From IMG/VR virus record IMGVR_UViG_3300037067_006488, positions 13,284-77,283 of that record: a stretch of 64,000 nt of DNA. The stretch is one strand, 5' to 3'. Each line of letters starts with the position of its first letter. Positions within the stretch are counted from its first letter, which is position 1. Under the pieces are notes generated by a model that saw only the letters and a program-made list of their open reading frames with translations, was not told where the DNA came from and did not search any database. Of the stretch, positions 2 to 64,000 are shown one piece after another. The DNA comes from a virus (taxonomy: Duplodnaviria; Caudoviricetes). Position numbers and translations under genes: made by a program.

Positions 2-730
2 GTGTGGTGTAAAAAATGCGCAGGAGGGGCTGAATATAAAGTATATGTTCCTAAACCAAGACTTTCAAACAAAGAGGGTTATCGGTTGTGTTGTAGGTGT
101 GGTAAAGAGCTGCCCCTTACTGTCGATTATTTTCAAAGAGATAATGGTAGTAAGTCTGGGTTTATGGGGGCGTGTAAAGTTTGTGTTAAGAAGGCAAGGG
201 ATATGAATAAGATTAAAATAAACAAGAAAAGACGTTTAAAAAGGTTGAGTAATATTACCACAGAAAGAGAAAGACAGCGTTTATACAGAGAAAAGAATGG
301 GGGACGGATTAATTTTCTGCAAAGACAACGGGTTAAACATAAAACCGAATCAGAAAAGTTTGCAACACGGGTGCGCTCGTCCATACGCAGGGCGTTAAGA
401 AATGGATTAAAGCAGTCCAAAACAACTGAATATTTGGGTTGCTCCATATTCGATTTTAAAAAATACTTAATCAGTTTGTTCACTGAGGAGATGACGTGGG
501 AAAGGTTTATGAATAGAGAAATAGAAATAGACCACATAAAACCCATCAAAATGTTTGATTTAACGGTGTACGAACAACAGTTAGAGGCATTTCATTATAC
601 TAATTGTCAGCCATTGTGGAAGAGCGATAACAGGAGTAAGGGGTCAAGGTATAATAAGAAGTATTATAGGGGGAATATACCACAAGCGAGCAAGAACGAT
701 AGGCTTGACCCTTGTTGTGTTAATTATTAA
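2..730 (+). CDS. HNH homing-endonuclease-like protein (probably 5'-truncated by the window)
   Basis: N-terminal CxxC pairs; C-terminal YLGCS...IDHIKP...FHYTNCQPLWKSDNRSKG, typical of viral HNH endonucleases. Confidence 0.7.
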   Translation: MWCKKCAGGAEYKVYVPKPRLSNKEGYRLCCRCGKELPLTVDYFQRDNGSKSGFMGACKVCVKKARDMNKIKINKKRRLKRLSNITTERERQRLYREKNGGRINFLQRQRVKHKTESEKFATRVRSSIRRALRNGLKQSKTTEYLGCSIFDFKKYLISLFTEEMTWERFMNREIEIDHIKPIKMFDLTVYEQQLEAFHYTNCQPLWKSDNRSKGSRYNKKYYRGNIPQASKNDRLDPCCVNY

Positions 731-736
731 TATTAA

Positions 737-767
737 AGCCCCGACAACAATCGGGGTTTTTTCTTTT
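737..767 (+). terminator. Intrinsic terminator
   Basis: AGCCCCGA-caacaa-TCGGGGTT hairpin followed by a T-tract, just after the HNH stop. Confidence 0.8.
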
Positions 768-785
768 AAAATAATTCACAAAATA

Positions 786-817
786 TTTGGATATTAACAA
801 AACAAGTGTTAATTTTG
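786..817 (+). promoter_or_regulatory. Bacteroidota primary-sigma promoter
   Basis: TTTG-N20-TAATTTTG matches the -33/-7 consensus, 22 nt upstream of ATG 840. Confidence 0.75.
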
Positions 818-839
818 ATCTACAATTATAACGATAAAC

Positions 840-1466
840 ATGAGCACAGAGAAACAAGGCGAGATTTTCTTCCCGAAGGGTTGCCCTTCATGCGGCGGTA
901 AGATTGTGTTTAAGAGGGCTGACGAATTGTTTAAGAATCCTGACAAGTGTGGTTTTGTGTATTGTTGCGAGAACTATCCTACCAACTGCACGGTGTTTGT
1001 AAGTGCCCACAAGGAAACAAAAGGAGAGGGTATAAGGGATTATCCTATCGGCATCCTGGCAGACGATAAACTACGCATCCTTCACGATGTGTGTCGTAAC
1101 AAATTCAATCAGCTTTGGCTTGACGGCAACAACATAAAGAGGGTATACAAGGATTTTGTTGTGGGGTTTACGGACGAGAACGGAGAATCCTGTTACGGTG
1201 TTGTAGACAAGGTTACAAGCGAGGGGTATATCCTTTATTCTCCCTGTTGCAAAGAACCTTTTGTCGTGCCCTTAAACATGGTCAATACAATCACCGCCCG
1301 CACTAAAGCATACTTCTGGTTGTCTATTAAAATGGGAATACCCTTTAACGACTGCAAGATTCCTATGTTCGACAAGGATGCAACAGAAAAAGCAATATCA
1401 ATAATAGAAGAAGCTATTTTAAATTTAAAATCAAATAACGATGGAACAAAAGACTTTCAGGGCTAA
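840..1466 (+). CDS. Zinc-finger protein, DUF3268-like
   Basis: CPSCGG...YCCENYPTNC..FVSAHK...PIGILAD.KLR..H...FNQLW pattern. Confidence 0.55.
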   Translation: MSTEKQGEIFFPKGCPSCGGKIVFKRADELFKNPDKCGFVYCCENYPTNCTVFVSAHKETKGEGIRDYPIGILADDKLRILHDVCRNKFNQLWLDGNNIKRVYKDFVVGFTDENGESCYGVVDKVTSEGYILYSPCCKEPFVVPLNMVNTITARTKAYFWLSIKMGIPFNDCKIPMFDKDATEKAISIIEEAILNLKSNNDGTKDFQG

Positions 1467-1872
1467 TATGTTTGTAAAGGAGGTTAAGCCTCTTACGTCA
1501 GGTACAGGGAAAAACTATCAGCGTGTTACTCTCGGAGACGGAGTGGAGTATTCCGCTTGGGACAACAACAAAGGGAACGACTTCTCGGTTTTGGTAAATC
1601 AGAGCGTGGATGTGGAGACTTGGACTAACGGTAAGTTTAAGAATGTTCAGATTGCAAAGAAGGAACAGTCTGCCGCTTCTGCCCCTGCACCTGCCCCCGC
1701 AGTAAAACACGACAGCGATTTCGACATACGCAAGAGTTCTTTCTTGCTGGCTTTAGAACTGCTTAAACTCTCAGGAGAGAAAGCATCGAAAACTACTTTA
1801 GCACCTAAAATTCTATTCTGTGAAAATTACCTGCGGACAGGAGACCTTGGGGCTGATAAGGCTCAAGAGTAA
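1441..1872 (+). CDS. Hypothetical protein, possible OB-fold ssDNA-binding protein
   Basis: Beta-rich N-terminus, Ala/Pro linker, located next to the exonuclease. Confidence 0.3.
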   Translation: MEQKTFRANMFVKEVKPLTSGTGKNYQRVTLGDGVEYSAWDNNKGNDFSVLVNQSVDVETWTNGKFKNVQIAKKEQSAASAPAPAPAVKHDSDFDIRKSSFLLALELLKLSGEKASKTTLAPKILFCENYLRTGDLGADKAQE

Positions 1873-1891
1873 GTTTGATTTATACACTCTT

Positions 1892-2068
1892 ATGCCGGGC
1901 AAGAGGACGTGGAGAGAAGACAATATCGAGCCAGCAATAGGAACAGAATACCTTATTTATAGCCCTTATTCCAAATCCCTGTACGAAAGCAGGGTAGAAG
2001 AATGGACTAATTGGGCTGTGCTTGACAGATACATAAAGGAAGGAAATGTTTATATACGAGAAAAATAA
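1892..2068 (+). CDS. Hypothetical protein
   Basis: In-frame ATG at 1892 within track ORF 1820-2068; stop abuts the next ATG. Confidence 0.45.
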   Translation: MPGKRTWREDNIEPAIGTEYLIYSPYSKSLYESRVEEWTNWAVLDRYIKEGNVYIREK

Positions 2069-3120
2069 TGGAAGACAAGACACAGAATATATGGGCTGAA
2101 TACTCTACCCTGCCTCCACCCTCGGTACAGCTAAGACGTTTTGATGACGGAAGGGATAATAGGTTTTATTGGTGGGTGTCTTATAACGAGGAAGCCCAAA
2201 TAATACCTAACACAGCAATAGGGATAACCTCTTTGCTTGGGATGGTGATGCCGACAAGCCCATTTATGACACAATGGAAACTGGATAACCCGAACTGGGA
2301 ACAGCTTTTTAAAGATAGTTCTGTATACGGTACTATCCTACATCAGATATACGGAGAATGGATTGTAAAGAGGACTGTTAACGATGATTTAGTGCAGGCT
2401 GCCCGTGCTATCGCCATCCGCACAGGAGGAGGATCGGATATGATAGACAAGAATATCATATCCTTTATGAAGTGGGTTGAGGATTACAACGTGAAGCCTT
2501 TACTGTGCGAGGCTATGTTGCTGTCAGCGCCGATAGAAGGCGAACAATATGCCCTTACCCTTGACTTGCTTTGCGAGCTGTCCGTAGAGGAGACCGTAGA
2601 GTTTGAGAAGGAGGACGGGGTGTATGTGAAGGGCGACAAAAAAGGACAGCCTAAGATAATAAAGATTAAAGAAACGTCTAAGGTTAAACGGTTAGCTCTT
2701 GTAGACTTCAAGTCTAACTTCTTCGACAAGGACAAGAAATCGTTCTACGATTCTCACCTTATGCAGTTGATCGGTGCGAGGAAGGCTATTAAACACAGCT
2801 ATCCCGATCTGAATGTAGATATAATTGCGAACCTCTCCCCTTCGGGGTGGAGAACAAAACCTGGGTATGATTTCTATATTTGGGAACCGACGTGGATAGA
2901 GGAAGCGTTGTTCGACAGTTATATCACGATTGCGAGGTTGAAGGGAATGTTTCAGCCGAAGGGCAGTATCTTCATGCCTCCAATATACAATGCAAATGCT
3001 AACTCCTCCGATTTCAGGATTGTCTCTTACCCCGAATATGTGTTGGGTATTCTTACGCCTCCCGAAGATAACCGAGAGGATTATACAGACGAGTTTAGTC
3101 CTATTCTTAACAGTATTTAG
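2068..3120 (+). CDS. PD-(D/E)XK phage exonuclease
   Basis: YGTILH..., CEAML, ALTLDLL, LVDFKS...QL motifs. Confidence 0.65.
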   Translation: MEDKTQNIWAEYSTLPPPSVQLRRFDDGRDNRFYWWVSYNEEAQIIPNTAIGITSLLGMVMPTSPFMTQWKLDNPNWEQLFKDSSVYGTILHQIYGEWIVKRTVNDDLVQAARAIAIRTGGGSDMIDKNIISFMKWVEDYNVKPLLCEAMLLSAPIEGEQYALTLDLLCELSVEETVEFEKEDGVYVKGDKKGQPKIIKIKETSKVKRLALVDFKSNFFDKDKKSFYDSHLMQLIGARKAIKHSYPDLNVDIIANLSPSGWRTKPGYDFYIWEPTWIEEALFDSYITIARLKGMFQPKGSIFMPPIYNANANSSDFRIVSYPEYVLGILTPPEDNREDYTDEFSPILNSI

Positions 3121-3125
3121 GATGA

Positions 3126-3437
3126 ATGACAAACAGCCAAAGCGCCTACTATCGGGGGGTGGTTATCCCAAGTATAATGAAGTGGCTAAACATAGACCTA
3201 ACGTTATACAAAACTGTCGCCCCCAAAATACATACTGCAATCAAGCACTGCTTCGGTATTCGCAGTATGCGAGATTTATCGGTACAGCAATTCGAGGTGT
3301 TTGCAGAAACATTACGAATGTTGTTTGTTCGGGAGTACGGGCTTCTAATCCCTACCCCTGACGAGAAAGACTTCGATGCAGAAAAAGCAACAATGCGGGA
3401 GTATTTAAGATTTAAAAGAAAACACAATGATTATTAA
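3126..3437 (+). CDS. Hypothetical protein (NinB/Orf-like)
   Basis: QSAYYRGVVIP...S.RDLS..QF..F.E pattern; tightly packed operon. Confidence 0.4.
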   Translation: MTNSQSAYYRGVVIPSIMKWLNIDLTLYKTVAPKIHTAIKHCFGIRSMRDLSVQQFEVFAETLRMLFVREYGLLIPTPDEKDFDAEKATMREYLRFKRKHNDY

Positions 3438-4002
3438 GATAAAAGTAAGACAAGAAGGGGTTGTGTACGAGTCAACAGGGTTGTTCTTCGTGGATGACTT
3501 TATATCCGAACAGGATTTAAACAGTTGGTTAACTACCCTTAATGCAGGGATAAGAGCGGGGTTGTATAAGGATTTTGTTAAGAACGATACGGTTTGTTTT
3601 GTTGTCGGCGAAGACAAGGGGGCTTTGCCCTTCATCCCCGAAACAGCAATAACAGACGACATAATAGATTTTATATGCGATAAGATGAGTTTGGGTATAG
3701 ACGACATAAAAACAACCTCCCGATCCAACAAGAGAAACGCATATTTAACAAGGTGTGTTGTTATTGGGGCTTTGCGGTTCTTTACTAAACTTGGCACGGC
3801 AGAGATAGGGGGAATATTTCAGAGAGACCATGCCTCTGTTGTGCATACTTGCAAGAGGGTATTACCTTCATTTTATTATCCGGTTAACCCTGTTGCGACC
3901 ACATTAATAAACAACGTCGCTATAAGGTATAACGACTCCCGTTTTATAGATGCTTGTAGGGAGGGAATATTTGCAAACAAAAGTGTAACAATATTAGACT
4001 AA
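3427..4002 (+). CDS. Protein with DnaA C-terminal (domain IV) HTH
   Basis: SR.NKR...TR......LR....LGTAEIGGIFQRDHASVVH.CKRV resembles the DnaA domain IV signature. Confidence 0.6.
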   Translation: MIIKIKVRQEGVVYESTGLFFVDDFISEQDLNSWLTTLNAGIRAGLYKDFVKNDTVCFVVGEDKGALPFIPETAITDDIIDFICDKMSLGIDDIKTTSRSNKRNAYLTRCVVIGALRFFTKLGTAEIGGIFQRDHASVVHTCKRVLPSFYYPVNPVATTLINNVAIRYNDSRFIDACREGIFANKSVTILD

Positions 4003-4003
4003 T

Positions 4004-4447
4004 ATGGACATAAACTTACCACACGAATTAAAAGGACGGGTTATTGCAAAGAGAGGCCCGTATATTGTGGGACAGAACAAGATCGAAAAACATCTGTTGT
4101 ATCTCGAATGTGATTATCCCAAGAGGGGGAAGGTGGAAACTACGAACGTTAAGGCTCTTTGTTGGGCTTGGGGAGGACACGCCTCCAAGATAGACCACAT
4201 ATTCCCCGGAGATATTGTTAAGTTCACCTTCTCTCTTTCGGGTAGGATGGACAACGACAGAAAAGACAAGAACGGAGCAGAAATGTGTTGGACGGAGGTT
4301 GTTATCGAAAGCAGACCGGAGGTGTTGGATTCTTCGCAGAGAAAGATGTACAACAACAACCCTGGCGAACTACCTTTAGGGGGAGTAGAGGGGATGCCTC
4401 CGTCGGAGGATTTAGGAAAGGAAGATTACAATGATTTACCTTTTTGA
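4004..4447 (+). CDS. DUF3127-like single-stranded DNA-binding protein
   Basis: KGRVI start, GD.VKF.FSLSGR, acidic tail ending DLPF. Confidence 0.6.
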   Translation: MDINLPHELKGRVIAKRGPYIVGQNKIEKHLLYLECDYPKRGKVETTNVKALCWAWGGHASKIDHIFPGDIVKFTFSLSGRMDNDRKDKNGAEMCWTEVVIESRPEVLDSSQRKMYNNNPGELPLGGVEGMPPSEDLGKEDYNDLPF

Positions 4448-4474
4448 TATTCAATTAATTAAACAAAAACAACG

Positions 4475-4840
4475 ATGAAAACACTACCAACAGAATTTAA
4501 CAAGAACGGAATGAAGTACCGGATAATAGACCGGAGCGAAACAAGGTACTTAGCAGAAGTGTATTCTCTTGAATCGGGTAATCTTGGCGCTTACGAAACC
4601 GGAAGGATATTAAGACACGAGGGGTTTAAGATTGGAGGAAGGGATGTAGAGGCAGGAGAAAACATAATCGGCAACGAAGCCTTCGGCAAAGATGCTTACG
4701 AGGGCGTTATGTCCCCCAAAAGTAAGGATGTTGTAGTAGGATGGTTTAAGGAAGGCACTATATCCGATATAAGGAAGGCAAAATTGAGTTCGCCAAAACA
4801 GGAACAGGACAAAGTGGATATAAGCATTGACTCGGAATAA
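4475..4840 (+). CDS. Hypothetical phage protein
   Basis: Intact ORF after an A-rich leader, in-operon. Confidence 0.6.
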   Translation: MKTLPTEFNKNGMKYRIIDRSETRYLAEVYSLESGNLGAYETGRILRHEGFKIGGRDVEAGENIIGNEAFGKDAYEGVMSPKSKDVVVGWFKEGTISDIRKAKLSSPKQEQDKVDISIDSE

Positions 4841-4872: not shown

Positions 4873-5868
4873 ATGCAAATCGTAAAAAACATACAAGTTC
4901 CAACAGGAAATATTTGTGTAATGCAAGGAGAAAGGGGTTTATTGGAATTTTTATCAATCGGGGATTACGGTAAAGATTTAAACATTAAAGCTGATTTTCT
5001 TGGTATAACAAGGGAGTTGAACGGTGTCCCTAACGGGGAAATCATGCCCCTAACAGAGAAGTGGGTTATAACCATAAGCACACAATACGGCTGTTCAATG
5101 AACTGCAAGTTTTGTGATGTGCCTCTTGTCGGCAAAGGAATAAACGCAACGTTTAATGACTTAAAAAATCAAGTGGAATTAGCCTTATCGCTACACCCTG
5201 AAGTCGCACGTACCAAAAGGCTGAACATCCATTATGCAAGGATGGGGGAACCCACATTTAATAATTCAATATTAGATCACGCTATATATTTAAAAGAAAG
5301 TCATATTTTATATAACAGCCTTATTCATCCGGTAGTATCTACGATGATGCCCAAAAACAATAAAAGACTTTATTCTTTTATATCGGAGTGGATACATATA
5401 AAAAATGAATATTATAAAGGGAATGCGGGATTGCAGTTGTCTATTAACTCCACCGACAAACAGCAAAGAGAAGAAATGTTCTCAGGCAACGCTTCATCTC
5501 TTGAAGATATTGTTGAAATTATGGATTTAATGCCCGACCCTAAAGGAAGGAAATATACCCTAAACTTTGCATTGGCTGATAATTATATAATTGATGCTGA
5601 ATATTTAGCGCAGCTATTTGATCCTAAAAGATTTATGGTGAAAATCACCCCTTTACATAAAACCAAAAGCTGTAAAGATAATGGTATTGTTACAACTGGT
5701 GGATATGACAAGTTTACACCCTATAAAGAAACTGAAACCAACCTCAAGAAATGGGGATTTGATGTTATTGTGTTCGTTCCCTCTTATGATGAGGATTTAG
5801 GGATGATAACTTGTGGGAACGCTGTTCTTTCCGGTAATATGCCCAAAACAAAATATTTTGTGATATGA
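4873..5868 (+). CDS. RlmN/Cfr-family radical SAM protein
   Basis: ISTQYGCSMNCKFC (CxxxCxxC), RMGEP, LSINS..R.E and C-terminal TCGNA all align with RlmN motifs. Confidence 0.85.
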   Translation: MQIVKNIQVPTGNICVMQGERGLLEFLSIGDYGKDLNIKADFLGITRELNGVPNGEIMPLTEKWVITISTQYGCSMNCKFCDVPLVGKGINATFNDLKNQVELALSLHPEVARTKRLNIHYARMGEPTFNNSILDHAIYLKESHILYNSLIHPVVSTMMPKNNKRLYSFISEWIHIKNEYYKGNAGLQLSINSTDKQQREEMFSGNASSLEDIVEIMDLMPDPKGRKYTLNFALADNYIIDAEYLAQLFDPKRFMVKITPLHKTKSCKDNGIVTTGGYDKFTPYKETETNLKKWGFDVIVFVPSYDEDLGMITCGNAVLSGNMPKTKYFVI

Positions 5869-56091: not shown

Positions 56092-56700
56092 TTATTTTAA
56101 TCCTCTTTCTTCAACATACTTCCTTAACGTTATCCTATCGCATTCCAACTTCTTCGCCATCTTGACATACGTGTATCCCCGATCCAGATACTCCCTGATT
56201 CTCTTTTCGTGTTGGTAGAGCTTGCGTTTTTCGGGGTCGGTACGCCTACCTTCCCTTCGCCCCAAAATAACACCCTCAGACTTCTTTCTCTTTAAAGCCT
56301 CTTTTACCCTTTGCGAAATCATATTCCTCTCTATCTCCGAGGCTATCCCTAATATCATGGCAACAACAGGAGACATCAAATCGTCCTTCAGTTCATATCC
56401 TTCCTTGATGGAGTAGATAGACACACCCTTCTCCAAACAAGTTCTGATAACATCCATTACCCCGAACATCCTGCGGGACAACCGGGAAATCTCCGTTACG
56501 ATAAGTTTGTCGCCTTTTTGCAGGGTGTCGAATATAGCGCCGAAGTTCCTGTCCGATACCTTGGACGCTCCGGTAATGACATCTGCAACCCAATCCGTAA
56601 CCTCAAACTCCTTGCGCCTGCAAAACTCCTCTATCTCGAAACGCTGATTTGCGTTCTCCTGTTTGTCGGTTGACACCCTTAAATATGCTATCGTGCGCAT
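56092..56700 (-). CDS. Small serine recombinase, Mpi-like DNA invertase
   Basis: AYLRVSTDKQ catalytic Ser, GD.LIVTEISRLSR, EIERNMIS.R.KEAL...K.EG..LGR, C-terminal HTH. Confidence 0.88.
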   Translation of the reverse strand: MRTIAYLRVSTDKQENANQRFEIEEFCRRKEFEVTDWVADVITGASKVSDRNFGAIFDTLQKGDKLIVTEISRLSRRMFGVMDVIRTCLEKGVSIYSIKEGYELKDDLMSPVVAMILGIASEIERNMISQRVKEALKRKKSEGVILGRREGRRTDPEKRKLYQHEKRIREYLDRGYTYVKMAKKLECDRITLRKYVEERGLK

Positions 56701-57138: not shown

Positions 57139-57372
57139 CTATATAACAATAAATTTAATCTCCAACCCCATCGCCCTCGCATACGCCTTAGTATTCTCAA
57201 AGGTCAACGCAGTCTCGCCCCTTTCATAACGACTTAAACTCGTCCTGGTTATCCCAATAGCCTCCGCTACCTTCCCCTGCTTCATGTGTATCATCTTCCG
57301 ATACCCCACCAACATCTTTCTTGTCTCATCATCCCCTTTATTAGCCGTTTTTTGTACCACTTTTTGTACCAT
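57139..57372 (-). CDS. XRE-family (Cro-like) HTH regulator
   Basis: RK...MKQ..VA..IGITRTSLSRYERG; upstream TATATTTG (57412-57419). Confidence 0.8.
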   Translation of the reverse strand: MVQKVVQKTANKGDDETRKMLVGYRKMIHMKQGKVAEAIGITRTSLSRYERGETALTFENTKAYARAMGLEIKFIVI

Positions 57373-57419
57373 ATCACCTCTCCACTCGCTTATTTATAAT
57401 ATTTCAGTACACAAATATA

Positions 57420-58410
57420 AAACATATTTTTCTAAAAAACAACTCCCCCTACCCCTTTTTTATCCATTTTTTCCTTGCCCGCTACCATCCATTACCCCCT
57501 ATTGGGGATTCTTTGCCTGAAAGAGAGGGGGTATAACAGGCGTGGTAAAGCATACCAAGGATTGATCATGATATGGGGCGTGGGATTGTAAAGGATTTAT
57601 TGGAGTGGTTTACACTACGTTGCGAGGGGGGCGGGGTGCTTACCGAAAGTGAATCCAGGCGACCCACCCCCGTTCCTTTCTCCAATAAAATGAATTGATC
57701 TGTTAATCCGGGATGACAATACAATTATATATGCGCATTGCGCATGTGATTGATATACACATCACAAAGAAAAGGTAATGTTCATATTGTTTGCTTATAT
57801 CGTGCAATGTTGATATTAAACGTTTGTTTTTGTTCTACACTCATACATACAAACCACTTTGCAATCCGAAGTTATTGTAATACTGTTAATTGATAATTAA
57901 ATACTATTCTCATTATACAACAACAACAACAACAACACAGAACAAACAAACAAACAAGCTCCGCTACGCTACGCCCACGACCAGGTGACTGTCTATGTCT
58001 ATACCTTAAAGAGAATATCTTTGGTTTATTGTTGGCTTGCCTTTTATCCTTGTACCTCTATTATCCTTGTTCCCTATCCATATATTAGCCTCACACAAAC
58101 CGGATCATAACAAAGTAATATCCTTGCCTCACTTGCTTTAATCCTGTTTATACGTTGCCTGTTTTGCCTTACCTTATATATATGTATTGCAGGAATCAAT
58201 TTTAAAGCGTTTTGGATAACCGGATAATGTTATAGTCACACCTTATAAGGGTATATTAACCGGAAACGAGAAGATCATTCCGTTTTATTGTCGGTTTTTA
58301 GCTATCAATTTACCCTCTTTTTACCCTCAAATCCCTTTGAATCCCTTACCGCGCTAAGGATATAAATTATTTTCAAAAACATGACAAAAATCATATTATT
58401 ATTAACAGGG
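57420..58410. other. About 1 kb non-coding strand-switch region; candidate genome terminus or origin
   Basis: No credible ORF; G-run/C-run inverted element 57625-57672, palindromes, (CAA)n and (AAAC)n runs, repeated TATCCTTG. Confidence 0.45.
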
Positions 58411-58417
58411 AATTGTT

Positions 58418-58425
58418 TATATTTG
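58418..58425 (+). promoter_or_regulatory. -7 box of early promoter
   Basis: TATATTTG, 24 nt upstream of ATG 58450. Confidence 0.6.
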
Positions 58426-58449
58426 AATCATAATTTAAAACTTAATACA

Positions 58450-58749
58450 ATGAAAACACTAAAAAGAGAACCGGAGATTCTAATAGACTCCGCACATGGT
58501 ATTTATATACCTCAATACTTTGCCGAAGCTTATGGAACTCCTGATAACTTTTATAATTGGGGCGAAATAAAAGAGGATATTGATATTTTATTGTCGGGGC
58601 CTGATAATGAATTTTATTGGGATGCTTACGAAGATTTAATAAATAACGCAAAGCTAAAGACCACAGACAATAAAGAATCTTATTTATATACACATGAAGA
58701 CCTTTGGGCCGTGCCTGTTGATTATGATAATGAAGATTTTTTTGAATAA
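58450..58749 (+). CDS. Acidic early phage protein
   Basis: Start MKTLK at 58450; ILIDSAHGIYIPQ.F...GP.NE.YW...DLWA. Confidence 0.6.
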   Translation: MKTLKREPEILIDSAHGIYIPQYFAEAYGTPDNFYNWGEIKEDIDILLSGPDNEFYWDAYEDLINNAKLKTTDNKESYLYTHEDLWAVPVDYDNEDFFE

Positions 58750-58750
58750 A

Positions 58751-58802
58751 GACTAACTGAAGAGAGTTAAATACTCGAAACGGCTTCCGGGCCGTATTAG
58801 TC
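58751..58802 (+). ncRNA. Type I hammerhead ribozyme
   Basis: GACTAA-CTGAAGA-GAGT(taaat)ACTC-GAAA-CGGC(ttccgg)GCCG-TA-TTAGTC: full core, three perfect stems, GUA cleavage triplet. Confidence 0.92.
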
Positions 58803-58832
58803 AGATAATTATAAACTTTAATATTTAAAAAT

Positions 58833-59534
58833 ATGAAACGTACAATTAATTTTTTAGACGCCGATCGCAACAAAGTTGTTTTTAACTGCGAAATAACTAA
58901 CAGAAATGGGTATCCAGAATTTACCGCTTCTGGAGAATATTGTGGGGGCTTGGGCCAGGTATTCGACGAGGTAAAGCCAGCCACAGACAAACAAACCGAA
59001 CTTATTGAAGCTTGGCGTAAATATCGTTTGAACGGCATAAAGCCGGGGTTGCCTGAAGATTTTGAAAATTATATTAACGCCTTATTGGATGACATTGAAG
59101 GCGAAGAAGAAGACAGGAAAGGCGAACCGATAACAATTAATAACGAGACGCCGGAAGAAGTGTTTAAATTAATTGAAGACATTACAGGGTACACGGGCAG
59201 GGACGCCGAACTTTGCGCCGCTTTTATACAAATGTTTGACCTTTGCGAAAATGATTTACAGGATATTGAAATAGACGGAACAAGGTGCACCGTTCAGGGC
59301 ATTGATTATCTTGCGGGAACAGACGAGGAAATGGGCGAAGAATGGGACGGATACCTTGAACGTTATATAGATGAATGCTTGGAGATACCCGAACATATAG
59401 AACGTTATTTTGACCGCGAGGCGTGGAAAGAAGACGCCCGTTATGATGGCCGAGGTCATTCCCTTAATAGTTATGATGGCGGCGAAGAGTGCGCCGAAAT
59501 TAATGGTGTATATTATTACGCTTATAGACAATAA
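58833..59534 (+). CDS. Acidic protein with ArdA-like C-terminus (putative DNA-mimic antirestriction)
   Basis: Very Asp/Glu-rich; IPEHIERYFDREAW.EDAR.DG motif. Confidence 0.5.
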   Translation: MKRTINFLDADRNKVVFNCEITNRNGYPEFTASGEYCGGLGQVFDEVKPATDKQTELIEAWRKYRLNGIKPGLPEDFENYINALLDDIEGEEEDRKGEPITINNETPEEVFKLIEDITGYTGRDAELCAAFIQMFDLCENDLQDIEIDGTRCTVQGIDYLAGTDEEMGEEWDGYLERYIDECLEIPEHIERYFDREAWKEDARYDGRGHSLNSYDGGEECAEINGVYYYAYRQ

Positions 59535-59537
59535 GCC

Positions 59538-59726
59538 ATGAATAAAAACCTAAAAACCCAAATATGTACATACACCGGAGAGGTTAACGAACTTGTACGG
59601 CTATGTACGGGCAAAGAAGAGCAACCAGTAAAGGAAATATATCTTAATTGTTCAGAGGTATATTTTCTTGTCGGCCTGGATGCTATTAACGGCCCTTGTT
59701 TTATGGTAGAACAATATTTAAATTAA
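59538..59726 (+). CDS. Small early protein
   Basis: Intact ORF in early operon. Confidence 0.45.
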   Translation: MNKNLKTQICTYTGEVNELVRLCTGKEEQPVKEIYLNCSEVYFLVGLDAINGPCFMVEQYLN

Positions 59727-59765
59727 CCGTATTGGCAGCCCTCCGGGTTCGAGGCCCGGAACGGT
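59726..59765 (+). ncRNA. Compact T-loop-containing (tRNA-elbow-like) structured element
   Basis: ACCGT...TCCGGG-TTCGAGG-CCCGGA-ACGGT with a TGG-containing linker; intergenic. Confidence 0.5.
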
Positions 59766-59794
59766 GCAAAGATTATTAAACTTAAAACAATAAT

Positions 59795-60112
59795 ATGATC
59801 CTGAATCTAAATCATGCGATAACACGCAAATTAAACCGGACTGCCTATCTGTATAAAGGCAGGCTAAAAGGTGTGAAAATTACGCTTACACCGTACGAGA
59901 CACTATTATTTTCTATTGCGGGCACACGGCACAAAATAGAAATAGACCTTTCGCATTGCCTTAACCTGGCCGAAATACAAAACATAAACACCAAGTTTCA
60001 AACAGACCTTCAAGCATACAAAGAAGGCAGACGGAGACGGAGACCTAAAAGGGTGTTTTACCCTTATTCAGATGTATATTTAAAGAGTATTGAGACACTT
60101 AAACAATTATAA
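59795..60112 (+). CDS. Hypothetical basic protein
   Basis: Intact ORF after an A-rich leader. Confidence 0.55.
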   Translation: MILNLNHAITRKLNRTAYLYKGRLKGVKITLTPYETLLFSIAGTRHKIEIDLSHCLNLAEIQNINTKFQTDLQAYKEGRRRRRPKRVFYPYSDVYLKSIETLKQL

Positions 60113-60130
60113 AAACGTAAAAACAATTAA

Positions 60131-60547
60131 ATGAAACGACTATTTATAACGGCCGCCCTGATACCGTTTTACCTATCCTTCAGTATAGGTGAACCAACCA
60201 ACTTTAACAACAAGCCTAAACAGGATAAAAGCTATACAGAGTTTTTCTTGTCGGTGGCCTGGGTTGAAAGTAATTGGCGAACCTATGCTTTAGGCAAGGA
60301 TCAGGACGCCGGGATTGTGCAAATTACCCCGATTAGGCTAAAGGATTACAACCAACAAACCGGAAACAACTATACTATGCAAGACGTATATAATTTTCAG
60401 GTAAGTAAGGAGATATTTGATTTTTATTGTCGGGGTGTGGATTATGAAGTTGCTGCAAGGCGATGGAACGGTGGCCCAAACGGCATGAACAAAGAAAGCA
60501 CCGTAATATATTGGAACAAAGTTAAAGACGCATTATATAATAATTAA
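60131..60547 (+). CDS. Lysozyme-superfamily (SLT/i-type-like) muramidase with N-terminal signal or anchor
   Basis: VES catalytic Glu, AGIVQITP...DYN, ARRWNGGP.G. Confidence 0.7.
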   Translation: MKRLFITAALIPFYLSFSIGEPTNFNNKPKQDKSYTEFFLSVAWVESNWRTYALGKDQDAGIVQITPIRLKDYNQQTGNNYTMQDVYNFQVSKEIFDFYCRGVDYEVAARRWNGGPNGMNKESTVIYWNKVKDALYNN

Positions 60548-60559
60548 AATTTAAAAACA

Positions 60560-60853
60560 ATGAAAAAAAGAGAAATTCTTTATCCAGAACTGCCCCGCCG
60601 AGTATTTAGAAGCCCGTTAATTGAATATGCAAACTTTGCTGACGGGAGTTTTGTAAACTTGATACGCTTAATCAAGCCTTATGCAAATGGAGTTAAATAT
60701 GCTGTTTACGAAACAACTAAAAGCCCGTTTTGCTCAAACGGTTTATTTTCTACATACGATAATGCAAAAAATAAATTTGAACTAATGGTAAAAAATGGGA
60801 GCCATGAATCTAAGCTCATCAAAAGAGGCATAACAGGAAACTCAATAACATAA
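60560..60853 (+). CDS. Hypothetical early protein
   Basis: Intact ORF. Confidence 0.55.
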   Translation: MKKREILYPELPRRVFRSPLIEYANFADGSFVNLIRLIKPYANGVKYAVYETTKSPFCSNGLFSTYDNAKNKFELMVKNGSHESKLIKRGITGNSIT

Positions 60854-60872
60854 AACCAACAAACAAAACAAA

Positions 60873-61109
60873 ATGATAAGCACAACATACCTTAAACAAA
60901 TGAAATTCCGTTGCCTGCCTGACTTCTTTGAGCATATAACGCTAATGGCGGGACAGACTAAAGAAACTCATTACAGGCTGTATCTGAAAAGAATGAGCCG
61001 AGGCCAGCTCTTTAGGTTTGGTAAATATATTGAAAGCAATGCCGACAATATACCCATACCTGTACGGGAAGAAATAAATAACTTTGTATTAACTCTTAAA
61101 AAGGTGTAA
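60873..61109 (+). CDS. Hypothetical early protein
   Basis: Intact ORF. Confidence 0.5.
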   Translation: MISTTYLKQMKFRCLPDFFEHITLMAGQTKETHYRLYLKRMSRGQLFRFGKYIESNADNIPIPVREEINNFVLTLKKV

Positions 61110-61110
61110 T

Positions 61111-61209
61111 ATGATACTTACAAATGTTGAGATAGTAATAGCAATAGCCTTCGTATTATGTTTTGTTGCGGGGGCATGGGTTCTAAGAGAATACCCAAAA
61201 CAAGCCTGA
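61111..61209 (+). CDS. 32-aa single-TM peptide (not in track)
   Basis: MILTNVEIVIAIAFVLCFVAGAWVLREYPKQA; abuts both neighbours. Confidence 0.45.
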   Translation: MILTNVEIVIAIAFVLCFVAGAWVLREYPKQA

Positions 61210-61211
61210 AA

Positions 61212-61391
61212 ATGTTACTCTTTGTCTTGTATTGGATTGTTGTGGGGATGATAGCACACCTGTTGGATATATACCGCCCTAAACTCGAAGGAGAGAGTAT
61301 CTTCCCGTTAGGTAGGGCTGTTTTGTTTGGCCCGGTTGCCTTGTTCTCCGTCTTGCTGTTGTATTTCGGCGCGGGAAAGGACGAAGATTAA
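61212..61391 (+). CDS. Small 2-TM membrane protein
   Basis: Start MLLFVL at 61212, in frame with track ORF 61158-61391. Confidence 0.5.
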   Translation: MLLFVLYWIVVGMIAHLLDIYRPKLEGESIFPLGRAVLFGPVALFSVLLLYFGAGKDED

Positions 61392-61402
61392 AAGCTAAAA
61401 AC

Positions 61403-61437
61403 AAAGGGAGACTATCGTGGCCTCCCTTTTTTATTTT
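61403..61437. terminator. Bidirectional intrinsic terminator
   Basis: AAAGGGAG...CTCCCTTTTTT between converging genes. Confidence 0.8.
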
Positions 61438-61449
61438 ACTTGTATGCAA

Positions 61450-61956
61450 TTAGCAAACGCCATTCCTTTTAAGCACATCAACAACATAATCCTGATCTTT
61501 GTCCACAACGCTATTAGGGAAACGAATGACCTTATAACCTAAGGCAGTTAGGTATTTATCCCTTTTAGCATCTTTGGCTATATAATCACCCTTATAATGC
61601 TGTTGGCCGTCCACCTCTATAATAATATTATGAGAAGGCAAAAGGAAGTCTGTAATATAATAAAACCCTCCGAGATAAATAATATACTGAAAATCATAAT
61701 CAATTTGATGGGCATTAAGGATGTATTGCAACGCCACTTCTTGTTTTGTTGCGTTTATCCTTAAAAGCAAGGCCCTCTTCTCGGCTTGTTTCTTAACCAA
61801 TACATTTGGCTTTATATTAGCATTGGGGAGATAATTTGGGTTTTTGCCCTTCTTTCTCCTTTTCTTTTTCTTTCTGACCACCTCCATATCAAAATCGGAT
61901 GATATACCCATCCTTTTTTCAAGCCATTTAGTCTTATTTTTCCAATCTAACGCCAT
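61450..61956 (-). CDS. DUF559/Vsr-like endonuclease
   Basis: T..E..L, DF......IIEVDG.QH, D..RD..L...GYKVIRF.N. Confidence 0.85.
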   Translation of the reverse strand: MALDWKNKTKWLEKRMGISSDFDMEVVRKKKKRRKKGKNPNYLPNANIKPNVLVKKQAEKRALLLRINATKQEVALQYILNAHQIDYDFQYIIYLGGFYYITDFLLPSHNIIIEVDGQQHYKGDYIAKDAKRDKYLTALGYKVIRFPNSVVDKDQDYVVDVLKRNGVC

Positions 61957-62019
61957 ACCAAACTCATGTTAAGAAAAGCCTAACAAAAAAAAGTTACAAT
62001 CTTTAAAAGAGGGATACCG

Positions 62020-62793
62020 TTAGCTATTTATTGTAATCCTTGTCGGATACACAGTATATACTATTCCGTTATACCAAAACATATATGAATGCACTGGTTT
62101 TTCTATCTTGGAATATATATACTCGTAATAACTACAATTTCTATAACTAACACCACCAGGTTGCCACGTCCACATTAATTTATCGGATGTGTACTCCCTG
62201 AATCTCTTAAAATCAGATTGATTTATCCCGAACCTTAATTTAGCCTTGCGGGCCGATAAATACGTGTTTCCGTCAGCTACTTCACCGTTGGATCGCACAG
62301 CCTTATACATTTTGCGTAAACGCCTAATGCTTACACTTTTACGATCCCCCTCTTTTAATGATTTTAGGTCGAACTTACACTTAGCCACGTACCCTTGTTG
62401 TCTAACATACTTACATATAGCAACAGCCTTCATCTTATACACTATCTCTTTCAGGCTGTCTTTGTCTTCTATTTTTATTATGTATTTTCTCTTCTCGTTA
62501 AATAATCCCTTTGTGTTTTTTATAGAACACAATATAAGGTCTGTTTTGTTGTTTTGTTCGGACAGGTGTGCCATGTCCATATCAATAAGCATAGGAACAT
62601 ACTTACTTATAAGATATTCTGATGGTTTGCCTTGTTTTTGTAGTTTGCTGGCAGTTGATCTTGGGGAGTAATCGTATATACGGCTATTTTTAAAGCGTTT
62701 TTTGAGTTTATAATATAGGGCTATAGCTTTCATGCGAGCGTCATCTCTCGCACTTGCCTCTATCATCTTACAACAAACCCTATAATTAGCCAT
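62020..62793 (-). CDS. Basic DNA-binding protein, possible replication initiator
   Basis: Lys-rich, two possible HTH-like segments; preceded by a structured leader. Confidence 0.35.
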   Translation of the reverse strand: MANYRVCCKMIEASARDDARMKAIALYYKLKKRFKNSRIYDYSPRSTASKLQKQGKPSEYLISKYVPMLIDMDMAHLSEQNNKTDLILCSIKNTKGLFNEKRKYIIKIEDKDSLKEIVYKMKAVAICKYVRQQGYVAKCKFDLKSLKEGDRKSVSIRRLRKMYKAVRSNGEVADGNTYLSARKAKLRFGINQSDFKRFREYTSDKLMWTWQPGGVSYRNCSYYEYIYSKIEKPVHSYMFWYNGIVYTVYPTRITINS

Positions 62794-62801
62794 ACACTAC
62801 A

Positions 62802-62885
62802 AATAAAAAAGCTCCGGTACTGGTGTTGTGTATGGTGGATTGCAACGTCCGAGGATTTCCAGTAGCCGAAGCTTATACAAATATA
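62802..62885 (-). promoter_or_regulatory. -7 box plus long terminator-like 5' leader hairpin (attenuator-like)
   Basis: TATATTTG then AAGCTTCGGcTACTGG-35 nt-CCAGTACCGGAGCTT-TTTTATTT, 8 nt before ATG 62793. Confidence 0.6.
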
Positions 62886-62993
62886 GCTCTTTTGTTGCAA
62901 TTTACAATACACAACCCCCAAATATAAAACAAAAAATAATACCGTGTTTAGCATATTTTCAAACAAGAATTTGTTAATTATTTTGACGAAATA

Positions 62994-63025
62994 TTTGGAA
63001 ATGTAAAAAAGGTGTTTTAATTTTA
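62994..63025 (+). promoter_or_regulatory. Near-consensus Bacteroidota promoter
   Basis: TTTG-N20-TAATTTTA, same architecture as the 786-817 promoter. Confidence 0.55.
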
Positions 63026-63042
63026 AGGTAAAATTTAAAGCT

Positions 63043-63429
63043 ATGAAAAAGATAATGGTATTCTTTGCAGGCTTTCTTTTAATAGGCTGTTCTTCTCCCG
63101 AACCGCCCGATATGACAGGAACGTGGGAAGGATTCGCAGCAAGCACAATCAACTATACCGATCCTCTCTCTTTCGAGTTGTTACAACAGGGTTATTTGTT
63201 GTCGGGCACGGCATACATAATCAACACCCCTATTACTCAGGGTGTAGTATGTTCTGGAAGCAGGGTAGAAAAGGACAGCGTCTTTATCTTCGTGTTATTT
63301 CCTGGTTCTGCCGTTCAGATGTATTTTAGCGGCATTATCCGCAACGACTTTACCCTTATTACCGGGACATATACCCGAAATTACGGGAAGGGAGACATGA
63401 AAGAGAAGTTTATAGCATACAAACAATAA
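63043..63429 (+). CDS. Lipoprotein
   Basis: MKKIMVFFAGFLLIG|C lipobox; MTGTWEG beta-barrel-like start. Confidence 0.75.
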   Translation: MKKIMVFFAGFLLIGCSSPEPPDMTGTWEGFAASTINYTDPLSFELLQQGYLLSGTAYIINTPITQGVVCSGSRVEKDSVFIFVLFPGSAVQMYFSGIIRNDFTLITGTYTRNYGKGDMKEKFIAYKQ

Positions 63430-63447
63430 TTCTTAAATAAATAAAAC

Positions 63448-64000
63448 ATGAAAACGTACAAAGGATTTGACAAAGATTTAAAGTGCCGTGACTTCCAGTA
63501 TGAGATTGGTAAATCGTATGAAATGGATGGCAAAATAAAGGCTTGCGAAAGAGGATTCCATGCCTGTGAAAACCCACTTGATGTGTTTGATTATTATCCA
63601 CCTACTGAACGGTTCTGTGAAGTGGAGCAAGAGGGGGATATTGACAAGCATGACGCTGATACAAAAATTGCATCGTCAAAGATCACTATCAAGTCAGAGG
63701 TTAACTTGTTTGCATTGGTTAAGGTTGGTGTGGAATATATTCTGAGCAAGGTAGATTTCAAAGACGCAAAAGAATCCAACACCGGAGACTGGAGTGCAGC
63801 CACCAACACCGGAGACCAGAGTGCAGCCACCAACACCGGAGACCAGAGTGCAGCCACCAACACCGGATACCGGAGTGCAGCCACCAACACCGGATACCGG
63901 AGTGCAGCCACCAACACCGGAGACCGGAGTGCAGCCACCAACACCGGATACCGGAGTGCAGCCACCAACACCGGAGACCAGAGTGCAGCCACCAACACCG
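63448..64000 (+). CDS. Phage repeat protein (DUF7666-like), runs off the window end; not in track
   Basis: MKTYKGFDKDLKCRDFQYEIGKSYE...ACERGFHACENPLDVFDYY, followed by NTG..SAAT repeats; no stop before 64000. Confidence 0.8.
   Translation, partial: MKTYKGFDKDLKCRDFQYEIGKSYEMDGKIKACERGFHACENPLDVFDYYPPTERFCEVEQEGDIDKHDADTKIASSKITIKSEVNLFALVKVGVEYILSKVDFKDAKESNTGDWSAATNTGDQSAATNTGDQSAATNTGYRSAATNTGYRSAATNTGDRSAATNTGYRSAATNTGDQSAATNT
63778..64000 (+). repeat. 27-bp coding tandem repeat (8 full units plus a partial unit)
   Basis: AACACCGGA-(GAC/TAC)-(TGG/CAG/CGG)-AGTGCAGCCACC. Confidence 0.95.

Follow-up and report, generated by a model that had tools for sequence, protein, structure and literature searches.

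Hammerhead ribozymes have been described in prophages, where they occur in clusters that flank single genes (Perreault et al. 2011, PMC3088659). The three hammerheads that flank ardA in an A. tumefaciens prophage cleave in vitro as well as in E. coli, and in three Legionella strains a hammerhead immediately precedes ardA (PMC3088659). The role proposed for these elements is the processing of long polycistronic phage transcripts (PMC3088659), and more recent reviews continue to treat what hammerheads do in bacteria and phages as an open question (PMC6765202; PMC6155905). The link between a hammerhead and an ardA-type gene that was noted in 2011 is repeated at the locus described here, which offers a clean and well-supported case for this old question.

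The locus belongs to an uncultured groundwater phage, the host of which is probably a member of the Bacteroidota. In the window (the whole stretch of DNA that was analysed, 64,000 nt), a hammerhead motif at 58751-58802 separates a small acidic gene, gene 1, from an ArdA-like gene (Table 1). We consider it likely, judging from sequence, that 58751-58802 is an active type I hammerhead that cuts the RNA of a + strand operon co-transcriptionally between these two genes.

Table 1 Position of the hammerhead, its parts and the neighbouring features in the window
Feature	Position	Strand	Remarks
Serine invertase	56092-56700	minus	
Small HTH regulator	57139-57372	minus	divergent from the + strand operon
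Candidate promoter, TATATTTG	58418-58425	+	fits TAnnTTTG, the -7 promoter motif of Bacteroidota; 25 nt upstream of the gene 1 ATG
Gene 1	58450-58749	+	99 aa, very acidic, pI 4.1; stop codon TAA at 58747-58749
Unpaired A, 5' neighbour of stem I	58750	+	A in 166 of the 172 members with a 6-bp stem I, among the matches listed
Stem I, 5' strand GACUAA (GACTAA)	58751-58756	+	outer pair G-C as in the family; 5 of 6 stem I pairs covary
Catalytic core strand C3-A9, CUGAAGA	58757-58763	+	invariant in alignment A1 except N7
Stem II hairpin GAGU/ACUC, 4 bp, with 5-nt loop UAAAU	58764-58776	+	loop fits the family consensus U-N-A-A-U
Stem II strands GAGT and ACTC	58764-58767 and 58773-58776	+	paired
Core G12 A13 A14 (GAA)	58777-58779	+	invariant in alignment A1
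Stem III hairpin, CGGCU/GGCCG around a UCCG loop	58780-58795	+	4 of 6 pairs covary in the family
Predicted cleavage site, A17 (58796) / U1.1 (58797)	58796-58797	+	position from hammerhead numbering
Stem I, 3' strand UUAGUC (TTAGTC)	58797-58802	+	pairs with 58751-58756
Leader, 30 nt	58803-58832	+	A/U-rich, without Shine-Dalgarno; starts with the conserved unpaired A58803
ArdA-like gene	58833-59534	+	233 aa, pI 4.2, 56 Asp+Glu; ATG at 58833

The hammerhead motif and its fold

The + strand of 58751-58802 holds a complete type I hammerhead with all core nucleotides and three helices, the assignment to type I following from stem I being the open helix. Its core consists of C3 U4 G5 A6 N7 G8 A9, G12 A13 A14, the A15.1-U16.1 pair and an H17 that is not G (A58796), and the core-adjacent positions form the Watson-Crick pairs G58764-C58776 (10.1-11.1), U58797-A58756 (1.1-2.1) and A58780-U58795 (15.1-16.1), the last of which closes stem III. 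A preliminary description of this DNA had claimed a complete hammerhead between the first two early genes, starting 1 nt past the upstream stop codon; every element that it listed was found in its place, with stem I beginning at 58751 after a TAA that ends at 58749, and the cut that it named, between A58796 and U58797, follows from hammerhead numbering. The motif has the same orientation as the genes on both sides of it. Cleavage is predicted to leave 58796 with a 2',3'-cyclic phosphate and 58797 with a 5'-OH.

Folding of 58745-58835 with RNAfold gave the exact three-helix hammerhead as both MFE structure and centroid, at -15.7 kcal/mol and z = -2.19. When 261 nt of context were folded, the MFE structure traded stem I for downstream pairing with stems II and III staying in place, and stem I lost one of its six pairs in the centroid. 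A hammerhead descriptor that required the core, an H17 other than G and minimum stem lengths of 4, 3 and 3 bp had one match in the whole 77,283-bp record, at 58751-58802, and in 300 first-order Markov shuffles loose matches averaged 0.08 per genome, with none of the 300 reaching the observed quality. Several ribozymes flanking genes, as in the known clusters, were also looked for, and a single copy was present in the 77-kb record, the completeness of which is about 67%.

A compact hammerhead family and its recognition

The same design recurs widely in viral DNA. Scanning IMG/VR with the exact pattern of core and stem II of 58751-58802 returned nine contigs, a looser pattern (A2.1, core, stem II, GAAAC) returned at least 119 stretches, and the descriptor applied to these loci identified at least 198 hammerheads, at least 178 of which are distinct. 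Among the matches listed, the design is very uniform and compact and has no extra sensor domain: stem I is exactly 6 bp long in 172 of 178 distinct members, its outer pair being G-C, and 166 of these 172 have an unpaired A on each side of it; stem II comprises 4 bp and a 5-nt loop with the consensus U-N-A-A-U; stem III ranges from 4 to more than 10 bp with inserts of up to about 70 nt; and H17 is C in 149 members and A in 29. Forty-eight of the distinct copies among the matches listed lie outside the search pattern, and most of them still have the 6-bp stem I and the flanking A residues. Of the 120 viral loci listed, 48 contain several copies each, from two to five.

To describe the pairing in this family, we aligned 37 equal-length viral hammerheads of the same design, leaving out the 58751-58802 copy (alignment A1). 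All 16 pairs in A1 are 100% paired, and double changes occur at 12 of the 16, across all three stems. The covariation score is 0.747 as compared with 0.144 after shuffling and at most 0.10 with partners slid, for sequences that were picked by a descriptor requiring pairing; the independent check comes from the core and stem II pattern, which is silent on the other two stems and for which 129 of 137 matches among those listed have stems I and III in full, the other eight being mostly cut by a contig end or carrying one mismatch. A covariance model built from A1, R1, aligned to 58751-58802 from end to end with 66.2 bits (E = 8.6e-14), which is its sole real match in the window, and recovered at least 155 copies across the family, in 100 loci and at 30-80 bits.

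On these sequence criteria, members of the family number in the hundreds, in viral contigs as well as bacterial genomes. Of 80 pattern-matching loci in a species-representative genome collection, 29 have full hammerheads, and these include loci of cultured Bacteroidota (Mucilaginibacter, Pedobacter and Paraflavitalea), MAGs of several other phyla and arrays that reach nine copies in 4.5 kb. Strains of these three genera with the same design could serve as experimental systems. The other 51 loci were rejected as hammerheads, since by our estimate a search of 596 Gb with 17 fixed bases would return about as many by chance. In the groundwater sample, a 153-nt contig that matches 58756-58786 contains a different hammerhead of the family, with the same core and stem II and other stems I and III, and thus points to at least one more carrier in the same community.

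Some loci hold arrays of five to nine copies, one per small gene, in which stem I hardly differs between copies (GATTAA or GGTTAA). Such arrays were seen in L178, where nine type I hammerheads lie within 4.5 kb (534-4571, + strand), and also in L192 and L213. Because the stem I sequences within an array are nearly identical, the ends of an excised single-gene RNA could re-pair into a hammerhead, which raises the possibility of religation or circular RNAs from these arrays.

The Rfam hammerhead models, to which the preliminary description had looked for confirmation with Infernal, did not provide it. RF00163 (Hammerhead_1) scored 12.2 bits (E = 0.51) at 58751-58792, short of its cut-off of 34; a scan of the whole window with Rfam 15 at gathering thresholds gave 0 matches, an E-value scan of 251 nt around the site listed no hammerhead family, and the type II and type III hammerhead models found nothing across the genome. 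The same models at gathering thresholds also reported none of about 30 type I hammerheads in 11 further loci (L024, L025, L027, L045, L053, L070, L081, L116, L121, L123 and L140), and we therefore attribute the silence of Rfam at 58751-58802 to a weakness of its models for this subclass. Type II copies are readily detected by Rfam, as in one of the homologous loci discussed below (L004). Annotation based on Rfam thus overlooks an abundant phage subclass, of which R1 and A1 recover more than 150 copies in 100 loci among the matches listed.

The placement of the ribozyme relative to coding sequences is also a family trait. Among the matches listed, the ribozyme mostly starts right at the upstream stop codon or overlaps it, and the conserved A-G, or a UAA within stem I, often is the stop codon; the next ATG typically follows stem I after 13-21 nt, as compared with 30 nt at our locus, where the distance between stop codon and ribozyme is +1. 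The genes downstream are small (median 78 aa) and mutually unrelated in the 150 ORFs among the matches listed, and these ORFs show no enrichment of ArdA downstream of the subclass, the one case being 58833-59534 itself. Proteins with a pI below 5 make up 43% of the downstream products among the matches listed; the background figure of 26% comes from a crude set of ORFs and is too weak a control to use.

In addition to the three helices, the preliminary description had put forward a possible tertiary contact between loop II and the sequence just ahead of the next ATG, a match that by its own account could be chance. The complementarity exists, in that 58767-58773 in loop II can pair with 58822-58828 over 7 nt, but a contact is unsupported by the family, in which such complements are as frequent as expected from permuted pairings. 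Among 157 members listed, loop II complements in the downstream 50 nt are distributed as in the permuted pairings, those of at least 6 nt number 14 as against 15 expected, and the 58751-58802 copy alone has a 7-mer. We therefore regard the pairing of loop II with 58822-58828, which is not enriched in these 157 members, as a coincidence that A/T-rich sequence readily produces and have rejected it.

The distal end of stem I is a better candidate for the partner of loop II. As an established rule for hammerheads, the docking site of loop II on stem I is some six pairs away from the core, and the covariation between the two elements would fit this rule: among the matches listed, the U-N-A-N-U loop goes with a stem I end in which A residues flank a G..C pair in 149 cases, and copies with a RUAA tetraloop have an A..U pair flanked by Y and UA in four of four. 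The tetraloop belongs to a minor second design within the same set of contigs, seen at L031:1500-1550, L046:2163-2213, L107:8535-8587 and L107:9844-9899. Stem II of this design is closed by RUAA, the first pair of stem I is A-U, and Y and UAAC take the place of A and AA at the flanks.

The flanking genes and their operon

About 1 kb without genes precedes the + strand gene run that starts at 58450. On the + strand of 57400-58900, the motif TAnnTTTG occurs twice, against a background of 0.53 per kb and with a consensus taken from the Bacteroidota, to which the host probably belongs; the copy at 58418-58425 is put forward as a candidate for the promoter of the operon. The stretch between the two genes that flank the hammerhead has neither a Bacteroidota promoter motif nor a terminator, making their co-transcription the simplest reading. 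This layout, with a divergent HTH regulator and the operon start at 58450, would fit expression early after injection, as far as gene order can indicate.

Gene 1 has homologues in 11 viral contigs, all aligned from residue 1, and matches PHROG 21544, which is of unknown function, and no annotated family. The ArdA-like nature that had been ascribed to the downstream gene holds up weakly: the protein matches PHROG 2059 'anti-restriction protein' with E = 8.6e-6, it scores 23.6 bits against Pfam ArdA (PF07275) over profile positions 81-150, under the cut-off of 27, and a sequence search against solved ArdA structures gave no significant match. The strong acidity of both proteins would fit DNA-mimic anti-restriction proteins. 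The six nucleotides of the 3' strand of stem I and the 30-nt leader together form the predicted 36-nt 5' UTR of the cleaved ArdA-like mRNA.

None of the homologous loci, whether of the ArdA-like gene (L002-L006) or of gene 1 (L007-L017), has a type I hammerhead at the matching junction, and the ribozyme is thus not an obligatory partner of its flanking genes. Only L004 among these loci has type II hammerheads, which lie further down the operon: three copies on the + strand at 3988-4050, 4388-4452 and 5058-5128, scoring 46-61 bits and Rfam-significant, are located at gene junctions right after stop codons, downstream in an operon that encodes a distant ArdA-like homologue (2332-3246). At the DNA level, a comparison with deposited phages gave no match. 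Among sequencing runs, two DNA runs and no RNA run were listed as containing this DNA, one from groundwater, which may be the source, and one from a landfill; the landfill contigs have no cover of 58470-58806 and are thus silent on the ribozyme there.

Further along the operon, a GC-rich hairpin at 59726-59765 lies directly 3' of the stop codon of a 62-aa ORF (59538-59726). It has a T-arm-like loop, CCGGG-UUCGAGG-CCCGG, enclosed by ACCGU/ACGGU; ARAGORN reported no tRNA in 58000-64000, and Rfam reported nothing at 59726-59765. This hairpin may represent a further signal for RNA processing in the operon.

Proposed RNA processing, alternatives and known systems

Altogether, we take the ribozyme to be real and its activity, as predicted from sequence, to be very likely. 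Starting from the observed motif, its conservation, covariation and placement, we infer transcription across the site, cleavage and an effect on expression, as follows. Transcripts of the + strand operon, from its start around 58450, would include the ribozyme. Once the polymerase has moved past 58802, the three helices would form and the RNA would cut itself between A58796 and U58797. Because stem I is the open helix, almost the whole ribozyme would stay with the upstream product, so that the gene 1 mRNA would end in a compact 3' structure with a 2',3'-cyclic phosphate, protecting its 3' end, and the ArdA-like mRNA would have a 5'-OH at the head of a short leader, 36 nt of unstructured A/U-rich sequence that includes six ribozyme nucleotides. 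The weak 6-bp stem I would then melt to give two separate cistrons, uncoupling their decay and translation. Fast cleavage at cellular Mg2+ would probably need the conserved U-N-A-A-U of loop II to contact stem I at its distal end (the G-C pair, A58750 and A58803), with the downstream TATTTAA being dispensable for it. The preliminary description had suggested that a 5'-OH end could stabilise the ArdA-like mRNA or tune its translation; the effect of such an end depends on the host, being stabilising in E. coli and destabilising, via RNase J1, in B. subtilis, and the direction in which ArdA-like expression would change depends on the host nucleases. It is also possible, if rather doubtful, that three further things hold together: that the loop II-stem I module, with its exactly 6-bp, G-C-closed stem I, unpaired A on both flanks, 4-bp stem II and U-N-A-A-U loop, is an undescribed one, that its carriers form a distinct and abundant subfamily missed by Rfam, and that 58751-58802 acts jointly with the tRNA-like signal at 59726-59765 in cutting an anti-restriction operon into single-gene mRNAs.

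Cleavage might instead serve to lower or time-limit expression of the ArdA-like gene, with the 5'-OH product being targeted by a 5'-OH-tolerant exonuclease, for which the glmS ribozyme and RNase J1 provide a parallel, or with cleavage being conditional on the ionic or folding state. We think this unlikely. The descriptor, the covariation and R1 support an active ribozyme in this case as much as in the preferred one, and pairing of the 3' strand of stem I with downstream sequence in the larger fold could compete with the active fold; this competing pairing is not conserved, however, and the uniform and compact design among the matches listed, without a sensor domain, as well as the placement before many unrelated small genes argue for a generic processing role, even though regulated cleavage of phage hammerheads has been raised by Perreault et al. 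(PMC3088659).

The same recurrence, which among the matches listed extends to 150 small genes, mostly unrelated to each other, across many phages and phyla, is what would be expected if the hammerhead were mainly a feature of mobile or recombining gene cassettes, its units bordering accessory genes that are shuffled between phages, with cleavage at our locus a by-product and with excised RNAs that could religate or circularise in arrays. Homologues of the flanking genes without a ribozyme and arrays with near-identical stem I, such as the nine copies in 4.5 kb of L178, point in the same direction. We nonetheless hold such an origin to be quite improbable as the main explanation here, since a single copy in the genome leaves no flanked cassette, the tight fit to stop and start codons suggests selection for expression, and Perreault et al. 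sought spliced or circular products and found none (PMC3088659). Very little speaks for a chance or decayed, non-catalytic motif, or for a stem III hairpin that acts as a terminator or stabiliser, which we consider improbable in the extreme: the scores of the Rfam models below threshold would agree with it, but the core is intact, none of the 300 shuffles is as good, R1 as an independent family model gives 66 bits, and stem III has neither a T-run after it nor a terminator call at the site. We thus favour a role in which the operon RNA is cut during transcription, separating gene 1 from the ArdA-like gene.

The locus leaves the current understanding of phage hammerheads unchanged, in that both this kind of element and its pairing with this kind of gene were described in 2011 and the proposed function, a reasonable one, is already in the literature. 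Set against the type I model RF00163 (Hammerhead_1), the subclass has the same topology with an open stem I, the same core and the same cleavage site, and differs by its fixed, G-C-closed 6-bp stem I with unpaired A flanks and by its 4-bp stem II with a U-N-A-A-U loop. The type II clusters of phage operons (RF02276), of which L004 carries three, resemble it in lying directly after stop codons and between small phage genes, whereas they have a permuted topology with an open stem II, a tertiary contact formed by a pseudoknot and a part of the ribozyme that stays on the downstream mRNA. An engineered counterpart is RiboJ, an insulator derived from the sTRSV ribozyme with an added hairpin. In both cases self-cleavage gives, or here would give, the downstream gene a defined 5' leader regardless of the upstream context; 58751-58802 is natural, and only six of its nucleotides would be left on that leader. 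Finally, the prophage hammerheads of Perreault et al. (2011) form clusters of two or three whereas the copy described here is single, and it comes from an uncultured groundwater phage in which the ArdA match is below the Pfam threshold; the two have in common the canonical core, the intergenic placement in the orientation of the genes, an ardA-type gene directly downstream and a proposed role in cutting RNA.
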